DNA of 64,000 bases from a virus. The translations under genes and the position numbers were made by a program. The number at the start of each line of letters is the position of its first letter. Positions within the stretch are counted from its first letter, which is position 1. The stretch lies in IMG/VR virus record IMGVR_UViG_3300045993_000757, positions 11,110-75,109 of that record. One strand, written 5' to 3'. Positions 12,961 to 54,594 of the stretch are shown here, piece by piece. The notes beneath the pieces are model-generated. The model ran no database searches, was not told the origin of the DNA, and saw only the letters and a program-made list of their open reading frames with translations.

Positions 12961-12997
12961 ATCTGTAGAAGAAATCCTCGCGGATCTTCGATTGCTT

Positions 12998-13037: not shown

Positions 13038-13523
13038 ATGAGATATTTCGCTTCCAGGACCGCCGAAAACCCGCTTTACACCCAGGGAGGGCCCATCATT
13101 CGCTGGCCTCAACCGGCCGGTTCGAATGAAGGCATGATCGAGGTTAACGAGGCGGATCCCCGAAACGCCGCCTCGATCAAGAGTCTGGAACTTTGCATCG
13201 TGACCGGAACGGGCGGAGACATTCGCGAGGTCACTGTTTCTGAGTTCCAGGAATGGCAAAAAAAAACGAGTGGACTCCCGCGACACAAACCGCAACGGGA
13301 CGAATACTCCGCCGGACCAATGAGGGACACATCGTCGTCCCGGCCCAAAACTTCAAACGCGCCAGTTGCTGCGGCCATCGCTGAGTCGGTTCAGCCCGCA
13401 CCAGAAGCCACGGTTTCCGCGGCTGCACCGCTCCCTGCGCCCCCGCAGCCGGTAGCTGGGCAGCCTGCCAAGCCTGTTGTACTCTCTATCCCGACTCGGC
13501 GGCGGGGGGCTGTGGTCACCTGA
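13038..13523 (+). CDS. Hypothetical protein with Pro/Ala-rich tail
   Basis: ATG 13038 after terminator; contains an A9 run at 13258-13266. Confidence 0.6.
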   Translation: MRYFASRTAENPLYTQGGPIIRWPQPAGSNEGMIEVNEADPRNAASIKSLELCIVTGTGGDIREVTVSEFQEWQKKTSGLPRHKPQRDEYSAGPMRDTSSSRPKTSNAPVAAAIAESVQPAPEATVSAAAPLPAPPQPVAGQPAKPVVLSIPTRRRGAVVT

Positions 13524-13526
13524 TGA

Positions 13527-36795: not shown

Positions 36796-39700
36796 ATGCC
36801 CAAATATCCGCTGACCTTGCCGAACGGACAGTCGTTCGACATCGACTCGCCGAACGAGCTGTCCCAGTCCCAGCTCGCCGAAGCCCAGGGCCAGCTCATG
36901 GCCCAGTTTGGACAGGCCCAGCCCGACCCGACTCCGGTCGCCGAACCGTCGTTGTCCAATAACGCCTTCGATCCGATCGGTGCGGTGCGCGATGCCATTG
37001 GACAGGAACTGCCTCCGCCAGAGTTCGGCGCCATGGATGTCCCTGGGGCGGCAGTTCGATCCACCATGGGTCAACTCGGTCAGGGGATGTTCAAGATCGG
37101 GCTTGGAGCCATGGGTCTGACTACGGGCCCATTGGTTGATGTGCTGACGGGAAACACACCCTTCCAGCAGAACCCAAGCTGGGAAACCCTGGGAGAAACG
37201 CTCAATCCCGCGAAGTCCTACGCCCGGTTTAAGCGCGGCGCCATGGCGCAGAATATAAATGACCTAGCGCGTTCTTCGGTCCCCGTCTGGGAAAGGCAGA
37301 ACGATCCTTCCATCGCCCAGCCCACAGGGTTCACGAAGTCAGCCATCGATTTCACGGGGGGCGTTGCTTCCTCCGTCATCATGTCCCTTCCCGCCATGGT
37401 CACCGGGATCCCCGGGCTCATCGGGATGTCCATGGCCACGTTCGATCCGGCCTTTGAGGAGGCCCAGTCGAAGGGCGCAGGCGACACAAAAGCTTTCGCG
37501 CACGCCGTCCTTTCCACGGCGTTCGAAGCGGGATCCGAATACGTCGGATCGGCCTGGGCCAAGACCGCCCGGATGATGGAAACGATGCCGTACCTACCGC
37601 CGACCGTGCGGAAGTACCTGTTCCAGGCAGAGCGAGGCCCCGTGGAGGATGCCGCCAAGGAAGCTGCCAGGAGTTTCTGGGGGACACTCGTTGGCACAGC
37701 CAGCAGGAAGGACGGGATCCACCTCGGCACCGCGACGATGGAAGGGCTGGAGGAAGTCTTCAGCACCGTGGCCCAGCGCATGAGCGCGGCCATGCTCTAC
37801 GACCCGACCCAGATCACGAACATCGGCGACCTGATGATGGACGCCGGGATGTCGTTCCTGGGCGGTGCCGCGGCGGGTGTGGCCTTCACCCCGCTGGAGC
37901 GCCGTGTCGCGCGCCAGAAGGTCGGCGAGGCGATGCGGAGCGGTGTCTTCGAGCAGTACCGCACGGCCCTGGAAGCCGCCAAGAAGGACGGCGCGTACCG
38001 ACCTGAGGACCAGAAGGTCGTCAACGAGGCGGTCACCGGCCGTCGCCTGATGGAGCTTGGGGCTCTCTGGGGCAACACCGACATGGTGGCCAAGGGGAAG
38101 GAACAGCTCGCCGCCGCCACCACGCCCGAAATGGCAGCCGCCACGGAGGCGGAGGTGAAGAAGGCCGCGGAAATGTTCCACGCCGTCCAGACCCCGGAAG
38201 GAGCGGCGACGGCTCACAAGCTGGCGGTCGATCAGTTCGGTGCGGACAGTCCCCAGGCGAAGAAGATGGCCGAGCTAGTGAATCAGGCCAACGAGCACCG
38301 GCTGGACATCGCCCGTGCCCAGGCCGTGCAAACCTCCGGCCCCGGCATGAAGTCGGAGGAGTGGGCCAAAGTCGTCACCCAGGAAGGTCTTTCGCCTGAC
38401 CGCGTCGAGCTGCACGCCAGCCAGGGATTCCGCGACAACGAGACGGGTCTTCCCACCGAAAATCCCAAGGATTCCCAGGGCCGTCCCAATCAGGAGCAGG
38501 AAGGCTACGTCGATCCGCAGACCGGCAAGATCCACATTTACCAGGGGTCCATCCTGGGCGACATCAACGCCGGCCGGGGATCCCGCCGCGTCCGCCAGCG
38601 TGAGCACTTCCGCCAGGTGTTGCGGGAGGAGGCCGCGCACACGGCGCTTCAAACGCCCCTGGGCCGGAGCCGCCTCAACGCCTACGTCGAGCACCTTAAG
38701 GCGAACGACTCGAAGGCCTACCAGGCGATCGTGGACACGCTGGCAAGGCAAGGATACCACCCCGACATCATCCCCGAGGAGTACGTCGCCAAGCTCTACC
38801 GGCAGCAGTCCTGGTTCCAGCAGAAGGTCGATGACTTCATGCTGGCCCTGCACCGTTGGACCGGCATCGGGAAGCTGAATCACGTTCGCGCCGGACGCTT
38901 GCTGATCCGCAGTCTCGTGGAGCATTCCCGGCAGGGGAACCTTCGCGGGAACGCCGGCGCTTTCCAGCCTGCCAACGCCGCCGCCGATGTCCGCCAGCAG
39001 GAGTCGCGGCTGGACATGGCCAGGATCCGCGCCCTGAACACGGAGGAGGCCAAGGTCATCGCGTCCGGACACGCCGCGATACTGACCCAGCCCCAGCTAG
39101 AGCAGGCGATCCGCGACCTGACGACGCGCTTGGAACTCATGAACCGCCAGGGGATCGGCGGCATGGTCAAGCTGGAGACGGAGCGCGTCCTGAAAGCGGC
39201 CAAGGACGAGTTTGTGGCCCGCGAGAACGTCCGGCGTCAGGCCATCCTGAACCAAGCGACCGCGCCCGTGCAGCCGCCGACGCCCAACACGCCCCAGGGC
39301 GGCACGGCACCTTTCGTTCCGGTCATCGACCAGCAACCCCCGACACCACCCCCCAATGCCCCTGATCAACAGCAGCAGCAAACAGGCAGTCAGCCAGAAC
39401 ATCCGAACGGAAATGAAGGCGGGCAAGCCCCAGAAGCAGGCAATAGCAATAGCCCTGGCAGTCCAGCGGAGAGCGGAGCAGAAGCGCCGAATCCGGAAGA
39501 AAGCAAGGTAGCCAGCTACGTTCCGCCGGAGAACCCCGGCCACATTGCTGCCGACCTTTCGACCAAGGTTCAGCAGGGGGATTTGACGCGCGACGAAGGA
39601 ACCGCGCTGTCGATCAAGTTTGGGGTCCAGGGCGAGTTCGATCAGTTCATGGCCCTGATCGACAAGGTCGCCGCCCGCGAGGCTTCTGGAGAGGCTCAGG

Positions 39701-42700
39701 CGGAACGCGAGGCGCGCAAGGCCAAGATCGACAACATCGTCTCCCGGCTGCTCGTGGGCGATGAGGTGGACGGTGGCATTCTGGAGTCCATCGAACCCAG
39801 GGCGGAAGACGACCACTGGTTCGTGGTCCGTCACCCCGGAGGAACGACATCCGCATCCAACGTCCCGCCGATCATCGGCAAGATGTTCGACCCGGCCTGG
39901 GTCCAGTCCATTGAGTCCCGGAAGCTCACGCGCGAGAAGGTGCTGAAGGCGGAGGAGCTGAAGAAGAAGATCAAGGGCAAGGAGAAGCCCCAGGATGCTC
40001 GGGAACAGGCGGCGGCAGAGGCTCGTGCCAAGAAGGAGGCGTTCGAGCGCGCCGAGGCTGAACGCAAGGCCAAGGAAAAGGCGGACCAGGATGCGGCCCG
40101 CAACGAGTTCGAGTCGGCTTTCCAGCAGGCGAAGGCCCTGGCTCCTGGCGACAAGGTTGGAAAACGAGTCGTCCAATCCAACAACACCGAGACCACGGAC
40201 ATCCAGTTCGAGGGCGAGAACACCCCCGAGGACTACGAGAACGTCGCCGTCTTCATCATGGACGGAAACGACGTGGTGAAGGCTTCAACGCCACCGCCGG
40301 CCGCAGGCAAGACGTTCAAGGTGGGCGACCGAGTTCAGTGGATGGACGGGAAGATCACAAGGACTGGCGTCGTCCGTGAGCAAACCGCCATCGGGGTATC
40401 AGTCAACGACGATGACTCGGGCAGGAACTACCTGCTGGCTTCGAGTGACTTGACTGAACTCAGTAAGCCCGTTTCGGACCAACCCCAAGCCCCCGCGATC
40501 ATCGAGGCGTGGAAGAAGGGGAAGCGAGAACTGGCCCAGCAACTCGCCGATCGACTGCCCGAACCCGGTGACACATGGGCGTTCCGGACTTCCGACACCG
40601 GAAACCTGGCTGGGTATGGTGCCGGGGATTCCACCTTCACCCGAGACCTGACGGTGCGTGGCAAGCCTCTGTGGCAATGGATCAACGAGGCCCAGGCAGA
40701 TACCCTTCCGAAACCCGGATCCAACGCCCAGGAGAACAAGCCGGCCGCAGGGATCACCGCGGACAACCTGCACAAGCAGAACCTCCGGATGTTCACGGGC
40801 ATCCTGAAGCCCATCATCGAACGTGTCCGAGGAATCTTCGATCGCCTTGAACGGGGGAAGAAAGTCTCCCAAGATGACCATTCGTTCCTCAGTCGGTACA
40901 GGGCTTTTGCCACCGAGAAAGTTAGGTCTCTGAATGAGGGGTTTGGGGATGTCCCCGCGGAGAGCATCGCTCAGAAGTACACCGATGACTTCGAGGGCAT
41001 TGCCTTGGCCCGAGATTACACCAAGGCCCAACTGGAGGTGGAAAAGAGGCACCTCACCAAGTTTGGGCAACTGTTTCCGACGGGATCCGAAACAGGGAAC
41101 ATCATCTCAGGACTTCTGGGCCGCGTCATGGAAGCGATCAATCGCCATGATGGTGTCCCGATTCCTCGCCTCGCATCCAAGATTCCCAAACGTCCTATCC
41201 GCAAGCCCTCGACCCGCGAGCGTGCCCCCGACCTGATCGACCTCCTGATCGACACCGTGGGGAAGATCGACCCCAAGCTGATCAAGGAGGCCAATCCAGA
41301 CTTCAAGCCCACGGGCGCGGCCCGCCTGCTGTTCAGCCCCAAGGGAACTCCAGCCGACCAGGCCATGCACGCCGTGGTGGGACAGATGGGCGTCACGGCC
41401 GACATGAGCATCGACCAGTTCGCCGAGGCGATAACGGCGGCTGCCAATGGCAGGAAGGCCACACGCAAGGGCTGGGCGGCGGAAGGGGCCCAAAACGACG
41501 CGGATGCCAAGCGCGCCCTGGCGTTCCATGCGTTCCTGGATAAAGAACGCCCGTCAGGTCTTAGCGTCTCCGAGTTGAAGATGGGCGACAGCTTCACGGT
41601 GGACGGAGATCCTTTCTCCGTCATCGGGGTGGAGTACGGCGAGGATGGAGGGCCTTTCTCGGTTACCCTGGACGGCGGGAAGAAGTGGGGGACCCAGGTT
41701 GTCGATGGGAAGAAACCAGTCACGGTTGATGACGGAAGCTTCGCGGGCGTGAACGGCCCCATTGAGCCGGAGACCAGCAAGCTCCCGTCCGAAATCGCGG
41801 ACGAGATTCGTCGAGTGGTTGGATTCATCCAGGAGGTCAGGAACTACCTCAATTCCCAGCTTCAGTGGAAAGACAATCACAGCCGCTTTGTCGTGGAGGA
41901 ATACCTCAAGGACAACGCTCAGGCCATCGAAGCCGCTCAGAAGACCATTCAGGAATTCAGAGACGTTGCTCCGACTCACAACATCGACGCCGAGCTCGTC
42001 ATCGAGGAACTCGGCGGAGTTCCTGACATCACGCTTCCCCCTGAAAAACCTGCGGGCATCCCAGGCTTCTTCGACGCCATCGAGTCCGACGAGGACCGGA
42101 TCGCCCGCGAGCGCAACGAGGCCGAGCAACGCCGCGCCAAGGCCGACGCCGACAAGCTCCGCGACCTGGCCAACAAGCCGCTCAAGGGAACTGCTGGCGA
42201 CCTGGGGCAGGGGGCCCTGTTTGCGGAACCCGGCGACCAGGACTTGTTCGCCCCGCCGCCGGCCGACGTTCAGCCCAAGCGCAAGGCCATGGACGCGATC
42301 CAGGCCAAGGTGGACGCCCAGGACGCCACCAAGCGCGCCAAGATCGAGGAGCTGAAGAAGCGGCTGAAGCCGAACATGGGCGGAGAAGACATCACGCCGT
42401 TCTCCCTCAAGGAGCTTTCTCCCCAGACCAAGAACGACCTGATCGAACTGTCGGGGCTCTACCTGAGCAGCGACATCGTCTCCTTCGCCGAGTTCTCAAC
42501 CAAGCTCATCGACGACTTCGGGGACAGCGTTCGTCCCTGGCTCCAATTCGCCTATGAAAGCTCTCGGTTCTCTCCTGGTGCGACTTACAAGGGATCAATG
42601 GACCCGGCTGATTGGGTCGAACAACTCGCCAAAAAATATGACTCAGGTGCCACTCCGGATCTGGAATCAGATCGCTTCCGAACAACAGGACAACCTGGAC

Positions 42701-45700
42701 CCGATCGCGGTCCAACTGTTCAGCCTGAAAACCTCGGACCAGCTCAACCTGGTGATCGACCTGTGGCACCAGGAGATTCGCAAGCTGACACCGGAACCCC
42801 TGGTGGCGTCAGCGATCGTGGCGATTCTACCACTGATGCGCGCCCAGCGGGCGGTGAACGCCTTCCTGAGCCAGCGGCCAGCCCTGTCGTGGAACGTCCG
42901 GCAAGCCATCCCGGAACTCAACGGCCTGGACGAAGCGGTGGAACTGGGCGTGCTCGAGTATCGGCTGCGGCGCAATCAGACCTTGGATCTCCGGAAGCTC
43001 CTGTCGTCGCCCCAGACGTGGCAACTCCTCCGCCCGATTTTGGAGCGTACCCCAGCGACAACCCCGTCGCCGACCAAGCCGACGCCAACGCCCGATCCTA
43101 CCCCTGGCTCTCCGCCGATCCCGGCAACATAGAGAGCACGCTTCCGATGCTGTTCCCCAGCCAGCGGAAGAACGTCTTCCTGGCGGAGCGGCGGTTCGCG
43201 GAGACCCCGGTGGCAGCCACGCACGCCTCGGGCACCGGCCTGGGCGATCCCAAGCGCGGGATCCTGTTCACCGATGGCACCGGCACCGGCAAGACCTACT
43301 CCGGGGCAGGCATCGTCAAACGCTTCCTCATGCAGGGGAAGACGCGGATCCTCATCGCGGTCCCGAACGCCAACATCATCGAGGCGTGGAAGTCGGCGAT
43401 GAAGGACTTGGAGATCCCGCACTTCGTCCTTCCCGACACCAGCACCGCCGCCAAGGGCGTCACGCTGACCACCCAGGCGAACCTCCGAAACAACGCCGAG
43501 CTCGCCAAGCAGGACTTCGACCTGGTGGTCATCGACGAGTCTCACAACCTCCTGTCCAACGAGGCGGGTGAGGCGAACGCGGGTCTTCGGTCCTTCCGGA
43601 TGGTGGCCAACCACCCCGACAGCGTGGAGCGAAAGGCCACGAATGCCATCATCGGGCCTGCCCCGGTCCAGGCGGACTACGCAGGCGGAGGTGATTTCGC
43701 GGCTGCCCTTCACCAGTGGGACCAAAAGCGCATCGACAACATGGCGAAGATCAGCGCCGAGGTGAAGCGGATCAACGAACTGAACACCAAGGCGCTCTTT
43801 CTTTCAGCTACGCCATTCGCCTACCACACCTCGCTCATCATGGGCGACGGGTTCCTCTACTCCCTGCCCGACGACAGTCAGCGAACCGGATACAATCAGC
43901 CCAAGGGATTCGACCGGTTCCTCGCCGAGAACCTGGGATGGCGGATGCGAACTGGGAAGCTGAACAAGCCCAGCGCAAACGTGGACACTTCGGTCATGGA
44001 GATCCAACTCCACGACCTGTTCGCCAAGCGCGGGGCCATGCACGGCGTCTCGCTCGATGTTCCCCAGGACTACAGCCGGGAGTTCGTCCTGGTCCGACCG
44101 GCCGCAGCGCAGAAACTCGATGATGGGTTCTCGTTCTTCCGTGGCGGCGAGTCGTACCAGCAGCAGTACCCGATCCTCAATAAGGTCTTCAACGAGCTCT
44201 GGGACTACAACCACGTCGCCCAACTCCTCGAAGCATTGAAGATGGACTCTGCCATCGAACGCATCCGCCAGCACGTTGCCATGGGCAGGAAGGTCATCCT
44301 GCTCCACAGCTACCTGAAGGCGAAGATCCATGCCCACCCCTTCCGGTTCGAGACCTACCCGCCGGAATTCCTGATGGCTTTCAACGGGGCGGATCTCAAG
44401 GCTGAGATGGACCGTTTCCGGAACGATCATGCCGAGTGGGCCAACATCGTCATGCCCGACTCTGAGCTTTCGTTGGAGAAGATCCGCCGCGAGTTCGGAG
44501 ACTCCGTGGTCTTCAACAACGGCAAGGAGGCCCCCCGAAGTCGTGTCGAGGCGGTGATCGACTTCAACCGCGACGGTGGCGGCGTGAATCTCCTGGTCGG
44601 TCAGCTTCAGGCGACCAAGGAAGGCGTCTCGCTCCACGACAAGAGCGGGAAGCACCAGCGCGTCATGATGATGGTCGCGCTGCCCATCCGACCCACCGAT
44701 GCCATCCAGGCCGAGGGTCGCGGTTACCGGATCGGAGTGAAGACCGACGCCATCAACGAGTACATCGTGCTCCACACGATGATGGAGCGGTTCGCCTTCG
44801 CCTCGAAGATCAACGAGCGCGCGGACACCGTGGAAACCCTGGCCCTGGGATCGGACAGTCGAAACCTTCGCGACCGATTCCGCGACGGCTACCTCAATGC
44901 CATCGACGCGGATCCCAACGACCAGCAGGGCAAGGGAAGCAAGGAGGCCGACCGCCGCGCCGAGACGATGTCGGACTTCGACCGGGCCGTGTCCTTCTAC
45001 TTCGCCCGCACGAAGAAGAACTCCCGGACCAAGAGCGCCGAGGGGCTGGACTACTACCCCACGCCGGAGCCGCTGGGGCTCAAGATGGTGGAATGGGCTG
45101 ACCCAAGCGCCGGGGACGCCCTGCTGGAGCCTTCCGCCGGCCACGGGGCCATCGGCCAGTGGTTCCCCAACATCGGCCAGCACGCCTACCTGGAACCCTC
45201 CGCCGAGCTTCGCAGCGAGCTGGGAATCAAGGTGAAGGCGGGGACCGTCTACTCGACGACGTTCGAGGACTACCACATCACGAACAAGTTCGACGAGATC
45301 GTGATGAACCCGCCGTTTGGTCGGGCGGGGGCCACGGCGTTCGCGCACCTCGCCAAAGCTTTCCGACATCTGGTAATGGGCGGGCGTATCGTCGCCCTGG
45401 TTCCCGATGGGGCCAACACGAACGACAAGATCGTCGAACTCCTAAGGGCCGGGAATGATCCCACGGGGCACTATGACGGCCGAGTGTTGCGGGCGGACAT
45501 ATCGCTTCCTTCGTCCGTGTTTGAACGGGCCGGGACCAGCGTTCGGACTCGCCTGCTGATCTTCGATACGCCGACCTATTCCGATCTCCACTCCGGCCAC
45601 CGGATCGGAGAAGGGCTTGAGAACCTGTTCCCGCCCACGTTCACGACCAAGATCGAGGCCAACACCATCCAGGAGTTGTTCGACCAGATCCGCGACCTGG

Positions 45701-48700
45701 ACGTTCCGGCGCGAATCCGGAAGCCCAAGCCCGCCCCAAGCAATCCGCTGACCACACGGGACGCCATCATCCAGACGACATCCCAGGGCCCCGGCGTCGT
45801 TCCCACCCGCCAGCAGTCCACCACACCCCAGCTTCCTCCGTTGTTCAAGCTGGGTCAGACGACGCACGCGAAGAAGGGGATCCAGTTGTTCGTCGCCACG
45901 CTGACCAAGAGCTTGAGCGATGCGAACTTCTCCGTAGTCAACCGGATCGCCAAGAAGCACGACGGATACTACTCGGGGTACAACAAGGCCAACGCGATCC
46001 CAGGATTCCAGTTCGACGCCGCGGATCAACGAGACGATTTCGTCGCCGAGGTTGAGCGGGCACTCCGACCTCCCGACGAATCCACTCCGACCTACTCCCT
46101 GAAGGCGCGCGATCCGTTTGAGGTCAACGACATCACGCGCACCCGCGGGGCCATCATGGCTTCCATCGGAGTGCCGCACGTCGCGGATGCCATGACGATG
46201 ACCCCCGACGAGTTCGCCGCCGGGAAACATCCGACTGTCCTGGGGTTCTCTGGCAAGTCTCTATGGCAAGCCATCAACAGCGGGGATCCCACCCTTTCGG
46301 CGTTGCTCCGTTCGCCCGCCTATTCGCTCAAGGTCCGTCCGGTGCAGTCGGACCTGTTCGACCGGGAGACGACGCGGAGCATCGCCCAAGCCTACACCTC
46401 GGCGGGAACGTCGCTGCCGAACAACCGCCCCGCCCTGTTCTCGGTGATCGACAACGGGGACGGGTGGAAGGCGCAGAGTCGAAACATCGACTTCGGGGCC
46501 GGGAAGTCCTTGTGGATGGACGACGCCCTCAAGAGCCGGGGCGTGGAGAACCTTCGGTACGATCCATTCAACGAGGCCTCCGCCGTCAATGAGGCCACCG
46601 TCGATTCAGCTCTCCGCGCCCCGGCCGACACCTTGACCGTCGCCAACGTGCTCAACGTGGTCGCGCCGGAGGCTGCGTTGGATGAGACCATCCGTCAAAC
46701 CGCCCGCCTGCTGAAGCCGGACGGCAAGGCGTACTTCTGGGTCCACTTCGAGAACGGCAAGAAGTCCGGCGTTCCCCGCGGTCGCCCCGACTCCTGGCAA
46801 TGGCACCATAAGGCCGAGTGGTACGTCCCACACCTGAGCCGCTTCTACGGAAAGGTCGAGACCATCGGCCAGAACATGATCGTGGCCTCGCAGCCGATCC
46901 CCGTGGTGGGCGAATGGTCGCCGTCCGCGGAAGGGCCCACGTTCAGCCTCAAGCCGCGCGCCTACGACCTCACGCCGAACGGTGGGAATCCCATGGTGCC
47001 GCGCATCGGCTACCTCACCGGGAAGCACAGCGCCAAGATCCTCGCTCGCGCCCAGGCCCGCGGGGACATCGGGGCCCTGATTACGCCGACATCGTCGCAC
47101 TCATTGGACACGGCCCGGTCCTACCCGTTCTACGCCGTGGACAATGGCGTGTTCGGTAAGGCCGGGTTCAACGAGCCCAAGTTCAACGCCCTCCTGAACA
47201 AGATCCAACCGGGCGATCCCAAGGTCTTGTTCGTCGTGGCCCCCGATGTCCTGGCCCACCTTCCCAATGGCCAGGTGGTCGGGGATGCCGCGGCGACCAT
47301 CGAGCGGTTCAAGGATTGGGGCCCTCGGATCCGGGAGCGCGGTCTTCCCGTGGCTTTCGTGGCCCAGGACGGGCTGGAGGATCGGTTCAACGACATCCCA
47401 TGGGACGGTATGGACGTGCTGTTCATCGGCGGGTCCACGGGCTGGAAGCTGGGCGAGTTCGCCGATCCGGAGCGCCGGCGGCGGTGGGAGTATGTGATGG
47501 GCGAGGCGCACAACCGCGGCATCCCGATTCACATGGGGAGGGTGAACTCCAACGAGCGCCTGACGGGCCACGCCGTGGACATGGCTGCGTCCACCGCGGA
47601 CGGGACCCTCCTGGCGTTCGGGGAGGACATCAACTTGCCCAGGCTCGAATCATGGCTGGATCAGTTGAACCACGGGGGGCTGTCTTACGCGGCTCGGAAC
47701 ATGACGGAGTTGGGAAGATTGCCCACGAGGCGGGAGATTATCGACTTGGCCAGTGATCGGAATCTTGCCTATGAAACCCTCGGGGCATTTGAGCCCGCCC
47801 TGGACGAGATCAACGCCACGCGCAACGAACTTGGGCTGCCCCCAATCGCACCCCGCCAGTTCGATCCGGGCCAAGCTGAGTTCGGTTTCTCGCTGAAAAA
47901 GCCAGTCCGGATGTTCCGCAGCTACGCCGAGTTGGAAACGGGGGCTCTCCAGTTCGAGTCCTGGCGCGACTGGTACTCGGCCGACAAGGCGAACATAGAC
48001 TCTATGTTCGGTAAGGATGCCCCGCTGTTCGCACAGGTTCTCGCTGCCACGTCCATCCAGACTGAGGTTCCCGATAATGTCGGTCGAGCCTTGCGCGCCT
48101 ACATTGAGATGATTCAGGGAGCGCCATTCACTGGTCAGATCCCATCGGCTAGGGTCAATTTGGAGCGAATCCGGGATGGAGAGTCGATCCGTGGCCCCAA
48201 GATAGAACCTTTTGCTCGGGCCATCATGGGCGATGAAAGCGCGATCGCTGTTGACAGGCACGTCATCCGCGCGATCTTCGGCGAGGACGCGGTCGCTACT
48301 CCGGCACTCATAAGAAAGGCACAAGATGTCATTCGCAAGATTGCGGCGAAACACGGGTGGACTCCTCGGCAAACCCAGGCCGCAGTCTGGGCTTGGAAAA
48401 TCAATCTCAACGGGAAAACCCCCCAACGATACCTCGACTCCCTCACTCCCGATCGCTTCGCTAGCACAATCCGTGGATCAGGAGTTGAAGGACTCGTTCG
48501 ATCGCGCACGAATTTTGGACAGGGAACTCAAGCAGGCGTTGGGACCGGGGCGGCAGACACCGGATCCGGAGTTCAAACGGGAAATGAAACCCCCGCTTAC
48601 AGCCTAAAGACCCCGCCCGATCACCGGCCGCTCGCGGAGGACATCAACGCTTTCCGCACCGAGTTCCCCACGGCCCCGCCGATCGTCGTCAACCAGGACG

Positions 48701-51700
48701 ATGCCGCGCGCGGGGCCCGGTTCGAGAATGGCGAGATCGTGGTCGCTGAGACCATGATGCCCAGCAGCCGCACCGGTCGCCGGGCGGAACTCCTGGCGGC
48801 TCTCTCAGACGCCGGTCGGCTGAACATTCCCCAGGGATTCTGGGATCGAAGCTGGAAGGGTCTTGTCGCGGCTTCCCCCGTCCTCATCGAGGAGACACGC
48901 AAGTCCATTGGCGGGAACATCGACACCCAAGAAGGCCGCAATGCCATCCTGGCTGAGTTGGTGAAGCGGACATCAAAGTCCTCCGCCCCCGTGGGATTCG
49001 TGCGTTCGGCCCTGGCGTTCTTCCGTGGCCTCGACCAGACGAAGACCCCGGCCTACATCATCGCGGCCATGCAGCGGACGCTGGACCGGGTGACCGACCA
49101 GTTCACGCCACACCAGGCGGGGCCGCAGGGCGAGGCGGACTTCGGACCCACCGACACGCTCCACCAGTACATCGGCGGTCTCAACCGCGACGGATCACAG
49201 CGGGCGAGTGGCGTTCAGGAACAGGTCTTCGCCGACCAACACTTCGCCCTTTGGAACTCCTTCGAGCCTGAGCTTTCCCGCATGGAGGCGCGGCTCTCCG
49301 ATCTTCAGACGGGGCTCCTGGAGGACCACCAGTTCGAGAGTGTCCGCCAGCGGATGCAGCAGATCGCCGACACGGTCCTGGCAACGAACATTGCGAACCA
49401 CCGGCGCGCGGCCCTGAACATCGCCGCCGATGACTTCATCGACCAAGTCCAGGAGGTGAATCCTGACCTCCTCACCCGCGAGGACATCGAGAACCACAGC
49501 ATCTATCTCAACGAGGTGAAGGCCCGGCGAGCCATGTCGCTCATGCAGAACATCGAGCGGAACAAGGCGACTCGCGATTACCTGACGGACAACCTGCCCC
49601 AGTACCCGATTCAAACCCTGAACCGCCGCATCTCCCGGCAGCAGATCCGCCTGTCTGACATCGAGCAGAACCACCCCGAAATGTACGCTCGTGCCTCCGA
49701 GTTGAAGTCGCGGGTGGAAGGCGATCCCGCGGCCCGCGCCGCCGCCGATGCCATTTCCGACCCGGCCATCCAGGAGTGGGTCGAGGTCATCCATCAGATC
49801 CGCGAGAGCGGGACCCAGCCGCGCGCCCTGGCAGCCATGCCGGTGGCCATCCAGAATTCCGCCGCCGTCGCCGCCGGGGTGTTCCAGTACAAGGCCAGGG
49901 CCATGCGGCGGGAGCTGGGGGATCGCCTGGTTCGAACGACCGACACCGCCCTTCGCGCCCTCAACAAGCTCGTCGAGGAACGGCGCAATTCCCGGCAGAA
50001 GGAAGGTCAGATCGAAGTCGCCATGGTGGAGATGATCCAGGCGGCACGCGGGGACGCCGGGGCCAGCGGTGGCCTCTACACCCTGGAGGAAGCCAAGCGG
50101 ATGCGGGACATCGGGGACCGCGCCATCGCCCGGTTTGCTCGATTCCTGGGGGCTTCAGATCCCGGAACGCTGCCGGCTGAGCTTCGGGATGCCTTCATCG
50201 AGGACAACCTGATGTCCATCGGGATCGACCCGGCGACCCTGAGCGGGCCCAACTCGTTCGATCTCGACCGGATCGCCACCGATGCCGGGATCTCGCGGGA
50301 AGCCTTCCTTCAGATCATGGAACTGGCGCGCACCTCGCGCCCCTTCCAGAACATGGTGGTCGCCCTGGCCGACGAGGCCGACGAGCGCGCTGAGACCAGC
50401 ATCCTCAACGCCATCCAGCGGCTCCAACGGGTCCGCAACGAAGTCCTGAGCCGCCCCAGGGATCCGGTGGACACCACCGGCCTGACCCCCAAGGAGGCGC
50501 GCATCGCCATCGCCCGATCCGAACGTGCCATCATCCGGCAGGCGAACCAGGAGGCGCTGCTCTCCGCGGCCCCGTTCCTGCGCTCCCTGAAGCAGCAGAC
50601 CCTCGAACTCAAGCAGTCGAACCGGTCGATGGACACGCAGATCGAGCGGTTGGAACGCGAGCTTCAGACGATCCAGAACCTCTCCGACATGGCCAACGCC
50701 GTGGACGGAGCGGCCCACGAGCTGGCCCCCGACAACTTCGGGGTGGCCGAGATGGTCTACCAGACTTCGGACGGCGTCTTCATGGCGGAGTTCCTGACGG
50801 CGGAAGGAACCCAGCCCGGCGTCCGGGTCAGCCCTGGCGAGGAGTATTCGGCCGAGAAGATCATGGAGATCATCCTCTATCGGGACGCGGCCCTGCGCGC
50901 CATCGCTGCCAACGTGAACCCGCCGGAGATCACGCGCGGCTTGGAAGTCGCCGTGGACATGGTCCTCCCGCTGATCGACGCCAACTCGACCCCCGGATCC
51001 ATCGGAAAGACCCTGTCCCCGAACGGCCTGTCCGAACAGTGGACGAAGTATCCCATGGGCGTTCGAGCCGCGATGCCCCGCTTGATCCCCGGCATTTCCG
51101 GCCGGCGACTGGCGGAATCCATGGCCACCTACGCCCGTGTCGGAAGCAAGGTCACCGCCATCCTCAACAAGTACCACGCCCGCCGCGTCCAGTTGCTCAA
51201 GGCGGCGATGGACTCGATGAACCTGTCGCCCACGGACGAACTGGCGCGGTCCTCGTTCCGGCAGGTTTACAGCGAGGTGGCCCATCGCCTGCGCGAACAC
51301 GGATCCAACGTGGCTCCTGGCGATCAGACGTTCTCCGGAAATCACGGATCCATCGTGACCCCGGAGCTGATCACCCTCCTCCGGTACGACCGTGAAATCT
51401 TCAGGGCCGTCCAGGACATCGTGGAAAGCCTGCCCTACGGCGGCATCCGCGAGTCCATCCCCGGCATGGATGTCCGCCTCATTCGCCCCTCGGCCGAGAC
51501 CGGCGACGTGGGCCTGGCCCGGTCAGTGAACAAGGACTTCGAAGTCCCCCTGGCTCGCGCCTATTCCGCCGCAGTCACCCTGGCGACGAACCAGCAGAAG
51601 GTCACCGGACAGAACGTGATCCCCGACATCACCGCGTTCTGGGACATGAATCCGCACCACATCCTGTTCCACATCCTGGACGCTGGGCGGAACGACCTGG

Positions 51701-54594
51701 CCTTCGCTCGCAATCCGCAGCTTGTGGCCTTGGAGAAGCGATACGCGGCCGACATCCGCGCCGGCCGGGCCCAGGCCCCCAGGACGGTGCAGCAGGTCGT
51801 GAATGCCCTGACCGCCCTGGCCGGGGGAAGAATCCCGCCCGCGACCGTGGCCAAGCTGTTCAACGAGGAGCTGAACCGTTACGGCAAGGTCGCCCTGACC
51901 CGGAACTCCCTGGAATCCGAGGCCCCCAAGCGTTCCGAGGGGGTTCACATCGGCGAGGATGACACGAACGAGTTCTCGTCCCCCGCGGCGAAGCTCATCT
52001 ACCCCTCCGACTTCTACGAGTACGGGGCCAACGGGATCGACATCCGGCAAGCCGTGGAGCGCATGGCGGACCGGGCCCAGGTGGCCATGCTCGCGGCCAT
52101 GGAGGATGCCGCCAAGACCCTGAACTCCATCGTCAGCCGCCTCCAAGGTCCGATCCAAGGCATCACGTCCGAGGATCATGACATCGTCCGTTGGTCCACG
52201 CCCAACATGGACAAGTCCACCCTGTTCAAGCGGGTCGCCGCGGCCATCGAGGTGCTCAACGACCGGGCGCGGATGCTGCGCGCCGAGAAGGCCAAGCTGA
52301 TCGACACCGGGGTATCCCCTGGAACGCTCGTTCAGCTCATGCGGGCCAACTTCCCCATGATCCTGAGCTGGCCGCGCGCCATGCTGACGAACGTGGTGGG
52401 TGGGCCCATCGCCTCCGTCTACACCATGGCCGCGGTCTACGGCCGGCCGGCCGCGGTGCTGTTCGCCGCCCTGAATTCCATCGGAAGCATGGCCACGCTG
52501 GCATCCGAGTCGTTCCTGTGGACGGCGAAGAAGCTGGGATTCGATGTCACGGGGGGATCGAGCCCCAACTCCTTCCTTTCGAACCGCGCCGAGGCTCTGG
52601 ACTGGCTGGAGTCGGTCGGCCTGGGCGTCACCTCGTACTCCCATGCCGAGATCCAGGAGTTGCAGTCCTATATGCAGGGGCCGGGCCTGAAGAAGGCGTT
52701 CTTCCGCGGGGCCCTGAAGGTCGGGGCCGCAGTCGAGAATGTCCTGGGGCAACACGTTGGCGTCTCCGCCGGCGACCGTATCCTGAACCGGTTCGCCGCC
52801 CAGATCGTCGTTCCCATGACCCTTTGGCGGCTGAAGAAGTTGGCCCTGCGCTGGCAGCAGCGACTTGCCAAGATGGATGTGGTGGCCGGGCCCACGTCCC
52901 TCCGCGATACGCGGGGCAACTTCATGGCGGAGTACGCCTTCAGCGATGCCGACTCCCAGAACGCCGCTCGGATCCGCGAGCAGATCGAGGAGGCCGGGAT
53001 GAATCCCGAAGACTTCCTGGCCAAGCTGGCCAATGGGGAGATCGACATCCGCCGATTCTGGCGCACGGAAGCCGGGGCGAAGTTCGGGCAGATGATCCTA
53101 GGCGAGTTCAACGCCAGCAACCGCATCAACCGGCCGCATCCCAACGCCCTCCTAAGCCTCCTGGGATGGACCTCGTTCACCCTGTCACGCTCGCTGGACC
53201 TCATGCGCGCCAAGCCGAACATCGGCCGCTTCAAGCGCCTGGGGGAAGCCGCCATCGGGGCCATGGCCTTCTCCACCGCCTCTGTCCTGTCGGCCATGCT
53301 CCAGCAGGCCGCTCGGCAGGGATTCAACGAGTTGCAGACGACCATCGCCCGCACCATCGCCGATGCCCTGCGCGTCCCGCCCGACAAGGACGATGAGTGG
53401 TCCGTGTTCCACTGGATGCGGAACATCCTGGCGCGCGCCTTCGCCTCATTCGAGGTGAACGCCTCGCCCAAAGCCAACCCATGGGAAAAGTCCTGGTGGC
53501 AGCGCCCGTGGACCGAAATTGCGCTCGAGGTGGCCCGAGATATCCCGGCGGGTGTGGGCATCGATCGACTCGCCGAGGGCGGATCCCTGAAGACCCCATT
53601 CTCAGGCATGATGGTTCAGTCTATGGAAACCGTGGGCCTTGCGGTGAAGGCGATCTTCGAAGCCCTGGGCGGAGACACGCCCCAGGCCAAGACCAACGCC
53701 CTGCTCTCCGCCAAGAACGCCCTGGGGATGTTCGGCGAGCTGGGCCGGGCCATGGGCAATATGCTCATGCCCAACCGCCGGCAATCGGTCCACGACATCC
53801 GGAAGGCAGCCATCGACGCCGGCGTGAAGTTTACGCCCCCCGACACGAGCTTCGGCTTCCAGTTCATGCAGAACACCCCGACGCGCGGGCCCCTGCTGGA
53901 CGCCGCCCTTCAGGTTTCGCAGGCTCGAAGCGAAGCGGATCGATTGGCCGCATCGGATCGGCTCAAGGAAGTCAGCCGGGAGATTTACCAGGCCGCGTTC
54001 GACAAGGTGGTCGAGCGTGGCGGGTTTGCGAACGAGCACGACGCACGCAAGGCTGCGGATGAGGCAGGGAGGAAGGCGGTCCAGTCTGCCCTGTCCGCCA
54101 TGGAACCCGTCACTCGTGCTCTGGGTCGATCCGTGACGCCCACGGAGTTCGCGGCACTCAAAGCCACCGGGGTTCTGGATTCCACGGCGGTCCAGGAGGA
54201 GAGCGCGGCGGTGGCCGTCGCCGCCAGGATCCTGTCGAACACGAAGACCCCGGACGGCGGGCATTCGCTGGCCACGAACACCAAGGCGGTCAGCAGCCCC
54301 ATCTCCGGGGCGTACCTGGGCACTGGCGGAACGGTCAGCGGAGGAAGCCCCGTGGCCAGCGGGGGTGGATCTGCGTTCGGCGGCGGGGCCATGGGGGCTG
54401 GGGCGAGCGTCCTCGGTGGGTCGTCGAGCGCCCTTCGAGGAGGGCTCGGAAAGCTGGGTCGTTCGAAGTTCGGTCTCAGGCCGAAGAAGATGCGCCTCGG
54501 GAAGCCGGGTAAGAGCAAGGTGGTTCGCCTGGGCAAGTTAAAGGTGACTCGCATCAAGGTTCCCAAGCTCAAAAAAGTCGCGGTCAAGGGGTAG
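36796..54594 (+). CDS. Giant polyvalent (DarB-like) virion protein: ejection-type N-terminus, zincin-like domain, SF2 helicase, two methyltransferases, TIM-barrel domain, HhH glycosylase-like domain
   Basis: 5932 aa; REEAAH..EEYVA; DGTGTGKT/DESHN/LSATP/QAEGRGYR; YYPTP/LEPSAGHG/NPPF; DFGAG/YDPF/NVLNVV; DNGVF/APDV/VAQDG/FIGGST/HMGRVNS; GPKIEPF/AVDRH/QAAVW. Confidence 0.85.
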   Translation: MPKYPLTLPNGQSFDIDSPNELSQSQLAEAQGQLMAQFGQAQPDPTPVAEPSLSNNAFDPIGAVRDAIGQELPPPEFGAMDVPGAAVRSTMGQLGQGMFKIGLGAMGLTTGPLVDVLTGNTPFQQNPSWETLGETLNPAKSYARFKRGAMAQNINDLARSSVPVWERQNDPSIAQPTGFTKSAIDFTGGVASSVIMSLPAMVTGIPGLIGMSMATFDPAFEEAQSKGAGDTKAFAHAVLSTAFEAGSEYVGSAWAKTARMMETMPYLPPTVRKYLFQAERGPVEDAAKEAARSFWGTLVGTASRKDGIHLGTATMEGLEEVFSTVAQRMSAAMLYDPTQITNIGDLMMDAGMSFLGGAAAGVAFTPLERRVARQKVGEAMRSGVFEQYRTALEAAKKDGAYRPEDQKVVNEAVTGRRLMELGALWGNTDMVAKGKEQLAAATTPEMAAATEAEVKKAAEMFHAVQTPEGAATAHKLAVDQFGADSPQAKKMAELVNQANEHRLDIARAQAVQTSGPGMKSEEWAKVVTQEGLSPDRVELHASQGFRDNETGLPTENPKDSQGRPNQEQEGYVDPQTGKIHIYQGSILGDINAGRGSRRVRQREHFRQVLREEAAHTALQTPLGRSRLNAYVEHLKANDSKAYQAIVDTLARQGYHPDIIPEEYVAKLYRQQSWFQQKVDDFMLALHRWTGIGKLNHVRAGRLLIRSLVEHSRQGNLRGNAGAFQPANAAADVRQQESRLDMARIRALNTEEAKVIASGHAAILTQPQLEQAIRDLTTRLELMNRQGIGGMVKLETERVLKAAKDEFVARENVRRQAILNQATAPVQPPTPNTPQGGTAPFVPVIDQQPPTPPPNAPDQQQQQTGSQPEHPNGNEGGQAPEAGNSNSPGSPAESGAEAPNPEESKVASYVPPENPGHIAADLSTKVQQGDLTRDEGTALSIKFGVQGEFDQFMALIDKVAAREASGEAQAEREARKAKIDNIVSRLLVGDEVDGGILESIEPRAEDDHWFVVRHPGGTTSASNVPPIIGKMFDPAWVQSIESRKLTREKVLKAEELKKKIKGKEKPQDAREQAAAEARAKKEAFERAEAERKAKEKADQDAARNEFESAFQQAKALAPGDKVGKRVVQSNNTETTDIQFEGENTPEDYENVAVFIMDGNDVVKASTPPPAAGKTFKVGDRVQWMDGKITRTGVVREQTAIGVSVNDDDSGRNYLLASSDLTELSKPVSDQPQAPAIIEAWKKGKRELAQQLADRLPEPGDTWAFRTSDTGNLAGYGAGDSTFTRDLTVRGKPLWQWINEAQADTLPKPGSNAQENKPAAGITADNLHKQNLRMFTGILKPIIERVRGIFDRLERGKKVSQDDHSFLSRYRAFATEKVRSLNEGFGDVPAESIAQKYTDDFEGIALARDYTKAQLEVEKRHLTKFGQLFPTGSETGNIISGLLGRVMEAINRHDGVPIPRLASKIPKRPIRKPSTRERAPDLIDLLIDTVGKIDPKLIKEANPDFKPTGAARLLFSPKGTPADQAMHAVVGQMGVTADMSIDQFAEAITAAANGRKATRKGWAAEGAQNDADAKRALAFHAFLDKERPSGLSVSELKMGDSFTVDGDPFSVIGVEYGEDGGPFSVTLDGGKKWGTQVVDGKKPVTVDDGSFAGVNGPIEPETSKLPSEIADEIRRVVGFIQEVRNYLNSQLQWKDNHSRFVVEEYLKDNAQAIEAAQKTIQEFRDVAPTHNIDAELVIEELGGVPDITLPPEKPAGIPGFFDAIESDEDRIARERNEAEQRRAKADADKLRDLANKPLKGTAGDLGQGALFAEPGDQDLFAPPPADVQPKRKAMDAIQAKVDAQDATKRAKIEELKKRLKPNMGGEDITPFSLKELSPQTKNDLIELSGLYLSSDIVSFAEFSTKLIDDFGDSVRPWLQFAYESSRFSPGATYKGSMDPADWVEQLAKKYDSGATPDLESDRFRTTGQPGPDRGPTVQPENLGPAQPGDRPVAPGDSQADTGTPGGVSDRGDSTTDARPAGGERLPEPAASPVVERPASHPGTQRPGRSGGTGRARVSAAAQSDLGSPEAPVVAPDVATPPPDFGAYPSDNPVADQADANARSYPWLSADPGNIESTLPMLFPSQRKNVFLAERRFAETPVAATHASGTGLGDPKRGILFTDGTGTGKTYSGAGIVKRFLMQGKTRILIAVPNANIIEAWKSAMKDLEIPHFVLPDTSTAAKGVTLTTQANLRNNAELAKQDFDLVVIDESHNLLSNEAGEANAGLRSFRMVANHPDSVERKATNAIIGPAPVQADYAGGGDFAAALHQWDQKRIDNMAKISAEVKRINELNTKALFLSATPFAYHTSLIMGDGFLYSLPDDSQRTGYNQPKGFDRFLAENLGWRMRTGKLNKPSANVDTSVMEIQLHDLFAKRGAMHGVSLDVPQDYSREFVLVRPAAAQKLDDGFSFFRGGESYQQQYPILNKVFNELWDYNHVAQLLEALKMDSAIERIRQHVAMGRKVILLHSYLKAKIHAHPFRFETYPPEFLMAFNGADLKAEMDRFRNDHAEWANIVMPDSELSLEKIRREFGDSVVFNNGKEAPRSRVEAVIDFNRDGGGVNLLVGQLQATKEGVSLHDKSGKHQRVMMMVALPIRPTDAIQAEGRGYRIGVKTDAINEYIVLHTMMERFAFASKINERADTVETLALGSDSRNLRDRFRDGYLNAIDADPNDQQGKGSKEADRRAETMSDFDRAVSFYFARTKKNSRTKSAEGLDYYPTPEPLGLKMVEWADPSAGDALLEPSAGHGAIGQWFPNIGQHAYLEPSAELRSELGIKVKAGTVYSTTFEDYHITNKFDEIVMNPPFGRAGATAFAHLAKAFRHLVMGGRIVALVPDGANTNDKIVELLRAGNDPTGHYDGRVLRADISLPSSVFERAGTSVRTRLLIFDTPTYSDLHSGHRIGEGLENLFPPTFTTKIEANTIQELFDQIRDLDVPARIRKPKPAPSNPLTTRDAIIQTTSQGPGVVPTRQQSTTPQLPPLFKLGQTTHAKKGIQLFVATLTKSLSDANFSVVNRIAKKHDGYYSGYNKANAIPGFQFDAADQRDDFVAEVERALRPPDESTPTYSLKARDPFEVNDITRTRGAIMASIGVPHVADAMTMTPDEFAAGKHPTVLGFSGKSLWQAINSGDPTLSALLRSPAYSLKVRPVQSDLFDRETTRSIAQAYTSAGTSLPNNRPALFSVIDNGDGWKAQSRNIDFGAGKSLWMDDALKSRGVENLRYDPFNEASAVNEATVDSALRAPADTLTVANVLNVVAPEAALDETIRQTARLLKPDGKAYFWVHFENGKKSGVPRGRPDSWQWHHKAEWYVPHLSRFYGKVETIGQNMIVASQPIPVVGEWSPSAEGPTFSLKPRAYDLTPNGGNPMVPRIGYLTGKHSAKILARAQARGDIGALITPTSSHSLDTARSYPFYAVDNGVFGKAGFNEPKFNALLNKIQPGDPKVLFVVAPDVLAHLPNGQVVGDAAATIERFKDWGPRIRERGLPVAFVAQDGLEDRFNDIPWDGMDVLFIGGSTGWKLGEFADPERRRRWEYVMGEAHNRGIPIHMGRVNSNERLTGHAVDMAASTADGTLLAFGEDINLPRLESWLDQLNHGGLSYAARNMTELGRLPTRREIIDLASDRNLAYETLGAFEPALDEINATRNELGLPPIAPRQFDPGQAEFGFSLKKPVRMFRSYAELETGALQFESWRDWYSADKANIDSMFGKDAPLFAQVLAATSIQTEVPDNVGRALRAYIEMIQGAPFTGQIPSARVNLERIRDGESIRGPKIEPFARAIMGDESAIAVDRHVIRAIFGEDAVATPALIRKAQDVIRKIAAKHGWTPRQTQAAVWAWKINLNGKTPQRYLDSLTPDRFASTIRGSGVEGLVRSRTNFGQGTQAGVGTGAADTGSGVQTGNETPAYSLKTPPDHRPLAEDINAFRTEFPTAPPIVVNQDDAARGARFENGEIVVAETMMPSSRTGRRAELLAALSDAGRLNIPQGFWDRSWKGLVAASPVLIEETRKSIGGNIDTQEGRNAILAELVKRTSKSSAPVGFVRSALAFFRGLDQTKTPAYIIAAMQRTLDRVTDQFTPHQAGPQGEADFGPTDTLHQYIGGLNRDGSQRASGVQEQVFADQHFALWNSFEPELSRMEARLSDLQTGLLEDHQFESVRQRMQQIADTVLATNIANHRRAALNIAADDFIDQVQEVNPDLLTREDIENHSIYLNEVKARRAMSLMQNIERNKATRDYLTDNLPQYPIQTLNRRISRQQIRLSDIEQNHPEMYARASELKSRVEGDPAARAAADAISDPAIQEWVEVIHQIRESGTQPRALAAMPVAIQNSAAVAAGVFQYKARAMRRELGDRLVRTTDTALRALNKLVEERRNSRQKEGQIEVAMVEMIQAARGDAGASGGLYTLEEAKRMRDIGDRAIARFARFLGASDPGTLPAELRDAFIEDNLMSIGIDPATLSGPNSFDLDRIATDAGISREAFLQIMELARTSRPFQNMVVALADEADERAETSILNAIQRLQRVRNEVLSRPRDPVDTTGLTPKEARIAIARSERAIIRQANQEALLSAAPFLRSLKQQTLELKQSNRSMDTQIERLERELQTIQNLSDMANAVDGAAHELAPDNFGVAEMVYQTSDGVFMAEFLTAEGTQPGVRVSPGEEYSAEKIMEIILYRDAALRAIAANVNPPEITRGLEVAVDMVLPLIDANSTPGSIGKTLSPNGLSEQWTKYPMGVRAAMPRLIPGISGRRLAESMATYARVGSKVTAILNKYHARRVQLLKAAMDSMNLSPTDELARSSFRQVYSEVAHRLREHGSNVAPGDQTFSGNHGSIVTPELITLLRYDREIFRAVQDIVESLPYGGIRESIPGMDVRLIRPSAETGDVGLARSVNKDFEVPLARAYSAAVTLATNQQKVTGQNVIPDITAFWDMNPHHILFHILDAGRNDLAFARNPQLVALEKRYAADIRAGRAQAPRTVQQVVNALTALAGGRIPPATVAKLFNEELNRYGKVALTRNSLESEAPKRSEGVHIGEDDTNEFSSPAAKLIYPSDFYEYGANGIDIRQAVERMADRAQVAMLAAMEDAAKTLNSIVSRLQGPIQGITSEDHDIVRWSTPNMDKSTLFKRVAAAIEVLNDRARMLRAEKAKLIDTGVSPGTLVQLMRANFPMILSWPRAMLTNVVGGPIASVYTMAAVYGRPAAVLFAALNSIGSMATLASESFLWTAKKLGFDVTGGSSPNSFLSNRAEALDWLESVGLGVTSYSHAEIQELQSYMQGPGLKKAFFRGALKVGAAVENVLGQHVGVSAGDRILNRFAAQIVVPMTLWRLKKLALRWQQRLAKMDVVAGPTSLRDTRGNFMAEYAFSDADSQNAARIREQIEEAGMNPEDFLAKLANGEIDIRRFWRTEAGAKFGQMILGEFNASNRINRPHPNALLSLLGWTSFTLSRSLDLMRAKPNIGRFKRLGEAAIGAMAFSTASVLSAMLQQAARQGFNELQTTIARTIADALRVPPDKDDEWSVFHWMRNILARAFASFEVNASPKANPWEKSWWQRPWTEIALEVARDIPAGVGIDRLAEGGSLKTPFSGMMVQSMETVGLAVKAIFEALGGDTPQAKTNALLSAKNALGMFGELGRAMGNMLMPNRRQSVHDIRKAAIDAGVKFTPPDTSFGFQFMQNTPTRGPLLDAALQVSQARSEADRLAASDRLKEVSREIYQAAFDKVVERGGFANEHDARKAADEAGRKAVQSALSAMEPVTRALGRSVTPTEFAALKATGVLDSTAVQEESAAVAVAARILSNTKTPDGGHSLATNTKAVSSPISGAYLGTGGTVSGGSPVASGGGSAFGGGAMGAGASVLGGSSSALRGGLGKLGRSKFGLRPKKMRLGKPGKSKVVRLGKLKVTRIKVPKLKKVAVKG
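39356..39511 (+). CDS. Nested +1-frame gene: small basic phage protein (MPL...NIRTEMKAGKPQKQAIAIAL type)
   Basis: Manual translation MPLINSSSKQAVSQNIRTEMKAGKPQKQAIAIALAVQRRAEQKRRIRKKAR matches a pattern I recognise from small stand-alone phage genes; host frame here is a low-complexity linker. Confidence 0.75.
   Translation: MPLINSSSKQAVSQNIRTEMKAGKPQKQAIAIALAVQRRAEQKRRIRKKAR
42638..43132 (+). CDS. Nested +1-frame gene, 164-aa helical protein
   Basis: ATG after AAAAAAT; G/C third-position bias shifts to the +1 frame; amphipathic sequence; host frame is a P/G/R/D linker. Confidence 0.65.
   Translation: MTQVPLRIWNQIASEQQDNLDPIAVQLFSLKTSDQLNLVIDLWHQEIRKLTPEPLVASAIVAILPLMRAQRAVNAFLSQRPALSWNVRQAIPELNGLDEAVELGVLEYRLRRNQTLDLRKLLSSPQTWQLLRPILERTPATTPSPTKPTPTPDPTPGSPPIPAT
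48473..48607 (+). CDS. Possible nested +1-frame micro-gene (44 aa)
   Basis: GTG-DQELKDSFDRARILDRELKQALG...; GC3 bias in +1 frame; host frame is a Gly-rich linker. Confidence 0.4.
   Translation: MDQELKDSFDRARILDRELKQALGPGRQTPDPEFKREMKPPLTA

Follow-up and report, generated by a model that had tools for sequence, protein, structure and literature searches.

In the phage genome analyzed here, a conserved small gene of the phrog_2423 family lies in an alternative frame within the coding sequence of a giant polyvalent protein. The DNA in question, referred to below as the window, is a stretch of 64,000 nucleotides that corresponds to bases 11110-75109 of the 75,109-bp IMG/VR record IMGVR_UViG_3300045993_000757, a complete genome with direct terminal repeats. 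The small gene (39356-39511, plus strand), whose predicted 51-aa product is designated here P0001, begins with ATG, ends with TAG and occupies the +1 frame of a 5932-aa open reading frame (ORF; 36796-54594, plus strand), which encodes a DarB-like polyvalent protein of the late/structural gene block; the longer ORF encloses it completely, both being read from the same strand. With a probability that we put at roughly 70%, it represents a functional phrog_2423 gene that is embedded in a linker of the giant protein, is translated from its own AUG and has been missed by annotation. The initial annotation of the window, made from the letters of the sequence, had drawn attention to this ORF, and both the coordinates and the translation, which is identical to the peptide quoted there, were confirmed.

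Family assignment of the nested gene

An open +1 frame of 51 codons is by itself uninformative in this genome, since the G+C content of the window is about 62% and dozens of alternative-frame ORFs of at least 150 aa overlap the giant ORF; around the nested gene, the open part of the +1 frame begins only at 39251. It is the content of the nested ORF that, as judged by sequence comparisons, is far beyond chance. P0001 matches the phrog_2423 profile with an E value of 1.8e-20 and 73.7 bits, its residues 1-49 falling on positions 1-49 of the 52 positions of the profile, and this bit score exceeds those of three other metagenomic or unannotated members of the family (60.5-67.1 bits). The nested ORF is the sole match to phrog_2423 in the whole 75,109-bp record. 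Homologues were found by tblastn in 471 phage records, among them gp02 of Burkholderia phage Bcep781, gene 48 of Salmonella phage SP6 and, from PB1-like phages (Pseudomonas phage Ab28), a 68-aa 'virion protein'; P0001 has the profile, length and motif in common with these, and a search of 5.8 billion proteins returned 280 stand-alone homologues of 43-58 aa that are up to 85% identical to it. The resemblance to small basic stand-alone phage genes noticed in the initial annotation, which had proposed a search for homologues, is thus well founded.

In an alignment of P0001 with 60 stand-alone homologues (61 sequences), P0001 retains all 8 invariant and 13 near-invariant columns (M1, P2, L3, S8, N15, I16, T18, E19, M20, A22, G23, K24, P25 and Q26, followed by K27, Q28, A29, A31, I32, A33 and L34). 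The family motif, MPL..S..NI.TEM.AGKPQKQA.AIAL followed by a basic tail, is represented in P0001 by the MPL start as well as by the basic C-terminal tail RRAEQKRRIRKKAR, and the length of 51 aa agrees with the family size of about 43-70 aa. A second, weak match of P0001 concerns the first 40 positions of phrog_3778, which is annotated as head maturation protease. Searches with P0001 gave no match in NCBIfam and none in Pfam at E values up to 10, PF20106 (DUF6496) included; PF20106 is carried by 2 of the 120 listed homologues of P0001, and one Atlas cluster bears the DUF6496 label on 11% of its members. By these comparisons P0001 is assigned to phrog_2423, DUF6496 being a related label that is linked to it indirectly. 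The AlphaFold2 model of P0001, built with the family alignment, is a two-helix hairpin (helices 9-21 and 26-50) with a mean predicted local distance difference test (pLDDT) score of 90. Comparison of this model with the Protein Data Bank (PDB) by Foldseek gave no match at E ≤ 0.001, and no solved structures were found by sequence search with P0001.

The genomic surroundings of phrog_2423 genes suggest that the family has a head-associated role. In PB1-like phages, the phrog_2423 gene is located between the gene of a MuF-like head-morphogenesis protein and that of the protease, in a P22-like genome it follows the coat gene, and in other phages it is found near the gene encoding the large terminase. 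In Acinetobacter phages of the genus Obolenskvirus, for example in phage fThrA (L089:2501-3832), the head maturation protease begins with the phrog_2423 domain, fused to it in frame. Similarly placed in-frame domains occur in two proteins of 675 and 781 aa without a Pfam match (L037:4001-6028 and L042:3260-5605, respectively) and in a 183-aa protein that also carries DUF6321 (L027:1475-2026). The product labels in databases, together with this gene neighbourhood and the protease fusions, point in the same direction. P0001 and the remaining members are alike in their location in the late/structural part of the genome, with many of the latter in the head module. The gene of P0001, which is wholly inside the ORF of another frame, differs from nearly all the other members, which stand alone or form in-frame N-terminal domains of larger proteins.

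The giant host ORF

The 5932-aa protein matches phrog_10691 with an E value of 4.6e-232 and contains in addition a ResIII helicase, Methyltransf_23 and DUF7178; two methyltransferases are present. The combination of several effector domains, an SF2 helicase and an N6A methyltransferase among them, in a protein encoded among virion genes is that of polyvalent proteins of the DarB type, and the terminase and tail genes are located upstream of the giant ORF on the same strand. The only relatives of its N-terminal part (aa 1-1200) that were detected in a HMMER scan of 1.84 billion representatives are two proteins, P0002 (3651 aa) and P0003 (5906 aa). Comparison by blastp revealed blocks conserved between the giant protein and P0002 or P0003 over aa 55-710 and again from aa 1074 on. 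These blocks are separated by a variable, mostly low-complexity region (38929-40017, plus strand; aa 712-1074), in which the nested gene corresponds to aa 854-905 of the giant protein. Across the nested gene, the giant frame reads ...NAPDQQQQQTGSQPEHPNGNEGGQAPEAGNSNSPGSPAESGAEAPNPEESKVAS..., a low-complexity linker rich in Pro, Gln, Gly, Glu and Ser, and the initial annotation had rightly described it as a spacer. The sequences on both sides of the small gene belong to a single polypeptide in P0002 and P0003, which indicates that the giant frame is read through the small gene and that the host ORF is real.

A blastn search of phages with the sequence 38000-41000 gave no match, an exact-pattern search of viral contigs with pieces of the N-terminal part of the giant ORF found nothing, and the 'shadow' peptide of the giant frame over the nested gene had no matches among shorter proteins in the set of 5.8 billion.

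Probable conservation of the nested frame in P0003

P0003 was analyzed as a protein, as a search for its DNA among viral, metagenome and genome contigs gave no match. To each offset along it we assigned, by dynamic programming, the best score that a +1 reading could reach against the family over all synonymous codons, using a scoring profile of four members (P0001, the stand-alone Ab28 and Bcep781 proteins, and the copy of phage Tunturi_3 described below). The giant protein of the window has its best offset at the true site (aa 854; score 133.8, next best 73.8, background mean 30.4, standard deviation (sd) 14.2). P0003 has its best offset at aa 800 with a score of 126.0 (next best 73.5, background mean 31.7, sd 14.7); its residues 800-840 permit a family-like +1 reading, with the runner-up among about 5,900 offsets far lower. 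The best offset of P0002 is elsewhere in the protein (aa 3068; score 89.2, next best 78.0, background mean 31.0, sd 13.9), and the DNA encoding P0002 has no match to the family. P0003 is 36-53% identical to the giant protein in most flanking blocks, and its linker around the nested site is unalignable, so that the compatibility kept in this linker argues for selection on the small frame. As deduced from its protein sequence, P0003 thus probably shares the nested gene, in the same frame.

Recurrence of nesting and selection on the small frame

In IMG/VR, 80 loci with the small gene were detected by a scan based on alignment, and the open frames spanning it were measured at each of them. In 4 of the 80, which represent three lineages (L008, L020 and L031/L082), the small gene is nested in the same frame relative to its host ORF as in the window. 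The host ORF of L008 encodes at least 596 aa and stops at the contig end. That of L020 (1847 aa) contains DUF7178, which is also present in the giant protein of the window, while that of L031 (2034 aa) has a C-terminal domain that is annotated in isolated phages as lysin and in one record as 'large polyvalent protein'; the host protein of L082 (1663 aa) is 82% identical to the latter. Features of injected proteins are recognizable in two of these host lineages (L020 and L031). The host proteins of L020, L031 and L082 are mutually homologous (25-82% identity), and neither blastp nor a shallow hhalign comparison (probability <2%) revealed homology of them to the N-terminal module of the window's giant protein or to the L008 host. 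Two further candidates, L013 and L036, were rejected, as their open frame is most simply read as an upstream extension of a gene whose start lies beyond the small gene; the gene concerned encodes, in L013, a small terminase of gp3 type.

Sequence comparisons within these lineages indicate that the nested frame is under purifying selection there. Between L020 and L031, the differences at the first, second and third codon positions of the small frame are 6, 2 and 22, respectively; the small protein is identical in 48 of 56 residues and the host frame over it in 28 of 56, in a setting where the host flanks are about 25% identical. Between L031 and L082, the 600 bases upstream are 22% divergent and the changes fall mainly on the third position of the host frame (32/25/77). 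Inside the small gene there are 16 changes (9%), which fall mainly on the third position of the small frame (4/2/10). Additionally, T occupies 1% of the small-frame third positions in nested copies vs. 19% in other loci, and in genomes of intermediate G+C content the G+C of third codon positions (GC3) of nested copies is 1.8-2.7 sd above the trend. Both the scarcity of T and the raised GC3 are expected from the requirement to keep the host frame free of stops. In the record of L031, which is 99% complete, the nested copy is the sole copy.

A further nested case is probable, although provisional, in Tunturiibacter phage Tunturi_3 (PP885686). An unannotated homologue (5001-5165; E 2e-18) is located there in the same relative frame inside gp128 (L005:4778-5446), annotated as a protein of 222 aa. 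Both flanks of gp128 are coding-like in composition, and no homologues of gp128 were found.

Probable translation of the nested frame and alternative explanations

The region around the nested AUG (39326-39385, plus strand; positions -30 to +30) is C/A-rich and nearly structure-free, and it is a candidate region of internal initiation that lacks a Shine-Dalgarno sequence. Its predicted folding energy is -4.8 kcal/mol, compared with -17.5 kcal/mol (sd 4.5) along the giant ORF, which places it at the 99.7th percentile of openness; only 1.3% of 78 other +1-frame ATGs are as open, and the recognized gene starts of this phage average -10.3 kcal/mol. No promoter-like site was found near the nested ATG, so translation would proceed from the mRNA of the giant ORF. 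In other phages, the nested ATG is preceded by AAGGAG (L008), by a strong Shine-Dalgarno sequence, GAAGGAGGA, at a distance of 4 nt (Tunturi_3) or by a weaker AGGA-containing stretch (L031/L082). A search of the 25 bases upstream of the small gene in the window, L008, L020 and L031/L082 revealed no shift-prone motif common to them. The openness of the start, the presence of Shine-Dalgarno sequences in other nested copies and the lack of a common shift motif favour internal initiation over frameshifting.

Both frames would accordingly be decoded from one late mRNA. Ribosomes starting at 36796 would read the 156 bases of the nested gene as part of the Pro/Gln/Gly/Glu/Ser-rich spacer, while other ribosomes would start at the AUG at 39356, in the unstructured C/A-rich stretch, and produce the basic two-helix protein of 51 aa. 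The true dual coding claimed in the initial annotation gains indirect support from the retention of the invariant residues, from the status of the nested ORF as sole copy, from its unstructured start, from the fit of P0003 and from the selection on the small frame elsewhere; what is deduced from the sequence is the translation of the nested frame in this particular phage.

Several observations weigh against this interpretation. Upstream of the ATG at 39356, a Shine-Dalgarno sequence is lacking; the same is true of most gene starts of this phage, which suggests that its host makes little use of Shine-Dalgarno pairing. The weak folding of the mRNA may be no more than a consequence of the C/A-rich composition of the linker. 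The codon-position G+C over 39356-39511 (.73/.54/.44 in the giant frame and.54/.44/.75 in the small frame) initially appeared decisive and was downgraded to non-diagnostic evidence, since the same GC3 loss occurs in linkers without a nested gene in locus L006. This locus (IMGVR_UViG_3300020577_010873) contains the DNA of P0002, a 3651-aa giant ORF at 10001-20953 with low-GC3, Pro/Ala/Thr-rich linkers, and represents the closest relative whose DNA was read; no match to phrog_2423 was found in it, in a 74-kb record that is estimated to be 69% complete. The head role of the family is putative and is read from genomic context. Finally, no variants of this phage were found among the contigs of the four public sequencing runs described below, and the public runs listed for the phage included no RNA data set. 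The evidence of frame-specific selection, for which the initial annotation had proposed a test of the ratio of nonsynonymous to synonymous substitutions (dN/dS), therefore comes from the third-position bias in L020, L031 and L082 and from the protein-based reading of P0003.

Some of these observations would suit an untranslated relic, that is, a small gene captured by fusion of the giant ORF that remains intact owing to recency or to constraint at the DNA level, with only the giant frame decoded. The lack of a Shine-Dalgarno sequence and of a promoter-like site upstream is what a relic would show, the relative represented by L006 lives without the small gene, and, since the relevant frame is open by chance in about 40% of the stand-alone copies from high-G+C loci, capture would need no selection. 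We nevertheless regard a relic as unlikely. Decay would be expected in a linker that is otherwise unalignable, yet the ATG, the stop codon and every invariant residue are kept, and the score of P0001 is no lower than those of the live metagenomic members compared with it. P0003, despite its divergence from the giant protein, still fits the family in the same frame, the nested copies elsewhere change at the third positions of the small frame, and in two complete or near-complete genomes the nested copy is the only one.

More improbable than a relic, in our opinion, is that the small frame is reached by +1 frameshifting, either on the run of six cytosines (C6; 39349-39354, plus strand) directly 5' of the nested ATG (CCC CCC A, 39349-39355) or elsewhere within 39251-39355, with termination at the TAG at 39509-39511. 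The product would comprise the N-terminal module of about 850 aa and a C-terminal small domain, would contain the junction peptide ...PTPPPMPLINSS..., and would be formed beside or instead of the free protein. CCC-C sites are prone to +1 slips, and the location of such a site immediately before the ATG, in a +1 frame that is open from 39251, is compatible with this mechanism, as is the occurrence of the domain fused in frame to larger proteins (the Obolenskvirus head maturation protease and the proteins of L037 and L042). Programmed +1 frameshifting resembles the present case in the decoding of a second frame within an ORF and in a C run before the switch. Its difference lies in the absence of a common shift site and in the nested frame having its own AUG, with a Shine-Dalgarno sequence in several phages. 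A frameshift would not need these Shine-Dalgarno sequences, nor the Met-Pro-Leu start that all nested copies keep, no slippery motif is shared by the nested lineages, and in the known in-frame fusions the domain is N-terminal and not C-terminal. A review of programmed +1 frameshifting is available (PMC5009743).

The C6 homopolymer, a conceivable site of slippage or of an indel, is located exactly at the frame junction and could in principle have created the giant ORF through an assembly or sequencing error, the true genes being one of a protein of about 905 aa that ends in the small domain and another one downstream, which is hardly credible: P0002 and P0003 are single polypeptides across both sides, the P0003 protein continues through the same stretch in the same frame, and Logan contigs from four public runs (pond, wetland and river), compared over 38000-43400, are identical to the window without an indel or any other difference, the C6 run included, so that an assembly indel is unlikely. 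The contigs came from the runs X3 (75,012 bp, depth 63), X5, X6 and X7; X3 may be the source of the IMG/VR record. In the river metagenome (run X7, record 27), a different sequence matches 48 bases of the nested gene (39398-39445) with 3 differences and diverges on both sides. It is presumably a copy from another phage, in which the core GKPQKQAIAIA is conserved at the DNA level.

Origin of the nested arrangement

The gene embedded in the linker may have been present before the giant frame was extended over it. None of the host ORFs approaches the phrog_2423 family in breadth of distribution, from which the small frame would be the older one and the one under selection, and the giant frame over it would be a tolerated by-product of joining modules. 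Such joining would work because the frame one base upstream of the small gene is often free of stops: in loci of at least 60% G+C, roughly 40% of the copies are open in that frame, so that the joining of neighbours across the small gene needs little luck in G+C-rich phages. The proposal in the initial annotation that the giant ORF extended through an existing gene is consistent with this distribution. The order of events is our inference, and no locus was found with the host modules as separate genes flanking a free small gene.

A more speculative possibility, which we consider doubtful, is that the phrog_2423 protein acts as a dedicated partner, an adaptor or a chaperone, of large injected proteins packaged in the head, for instance by bringing them into the procapsid or by holding them together with the DNA, and that embedding has itself been selected. 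If so, embedding would guarantee joint inheritance and co-expression in cis, and it would explain why a sole copy in the same frame is found in unrelated giant ORFs of at least three phage lineages.

Comparison with known embedded genes and significance

Embedded genes are known in phages, for instance Rz1 inside Rz (in the +1 frame) in phage lambda, as well as E inside D and B inside A in phiX174. In these pairs, as in the case of P0001, a longer gene encloses a whole shorter one, which has start and stop codons of its own and is read in a different frame of the same strand, and one mRNA carries both. In the classical cases, the nested gene is an evolutionary newcomer that arose by overprinting. 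Here, on the contrary, the nested family appears old and widespread, and the host frame, read as a spacer, would be the newcomer; the host is also longer, by a factor of about 100, and members of this family are nested in no fewer than three host lineages. General background on embedded genes is given in a review (PMC8227390). The giant protein resembles the P1 DarB-type polyvalent proteins described in phages and conjugative elements (Iyer et al. 2017, PMC5512222) in its core of helicase and N6A methylase, in the joining of domains by linkers and in the location of its gene among virion genes. Neither 'frameshift' nor 'overlapping', 'small protein' or 'linker' was found as a term in that article, which places a gene hidden in a linker outside the published picture of polyvalent proteins. 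A full-text literature search returned no papers mentioning DUF6496 or phrog_2423, and no earlier description of the arrangement was found. Whereas the layout of an embedded gene is known, the nesting of an old conserved family member, in a giant polyvalent host and in several lineages, is new.

Because gene callers do not allow a gene within a gene, annotations of these phages list a conserved protein of the head module as missing; yet in two complete or near-complete genomes the phrog_2423 gene is present, solely in nested form. The arrangement would be a case of reverse overprinting, in which the frame of a very long ORF has come to cover an older small gene and reads it as a spacer. Several lineages of large phage ORFs show it, of which two have features of injected proteins, and it suggests that polyvalent proteins can grow by joining neighbours while keeping the intervening gene. 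It also provides a screen for hidden genes, in which known small families are sought in the alternative frames of the linkers of giant proteins. Phage Tunturi_3 appears to offer a cultured system for the expression of a nested copy.

Other features of the giant ORF and of gene starts

Several gene starts of this phage are preceded by T/C-rich stretches. Within the giant ORF, the GC3 signature is missing from the giant frame also at 48406-48645 and 36976-37155; the alternative-frame ORFs of these regions (48326-48607, 93 aa, and 36908-37120, 70 aa) had no family match. A second +1-frame ORF of 192 aa (42554-43132, plus strand), located just before the helicase, likewise had no PHROG or Pfam match. 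It is colinearly compatible with P0003, a comparison confounded by homology of the host frame. The sequence of its predicted product looks globular, and the giant frame over it reads as a Gly/Pro/Arg-rich linker with a GC3 of 0.43 over 540 bases.

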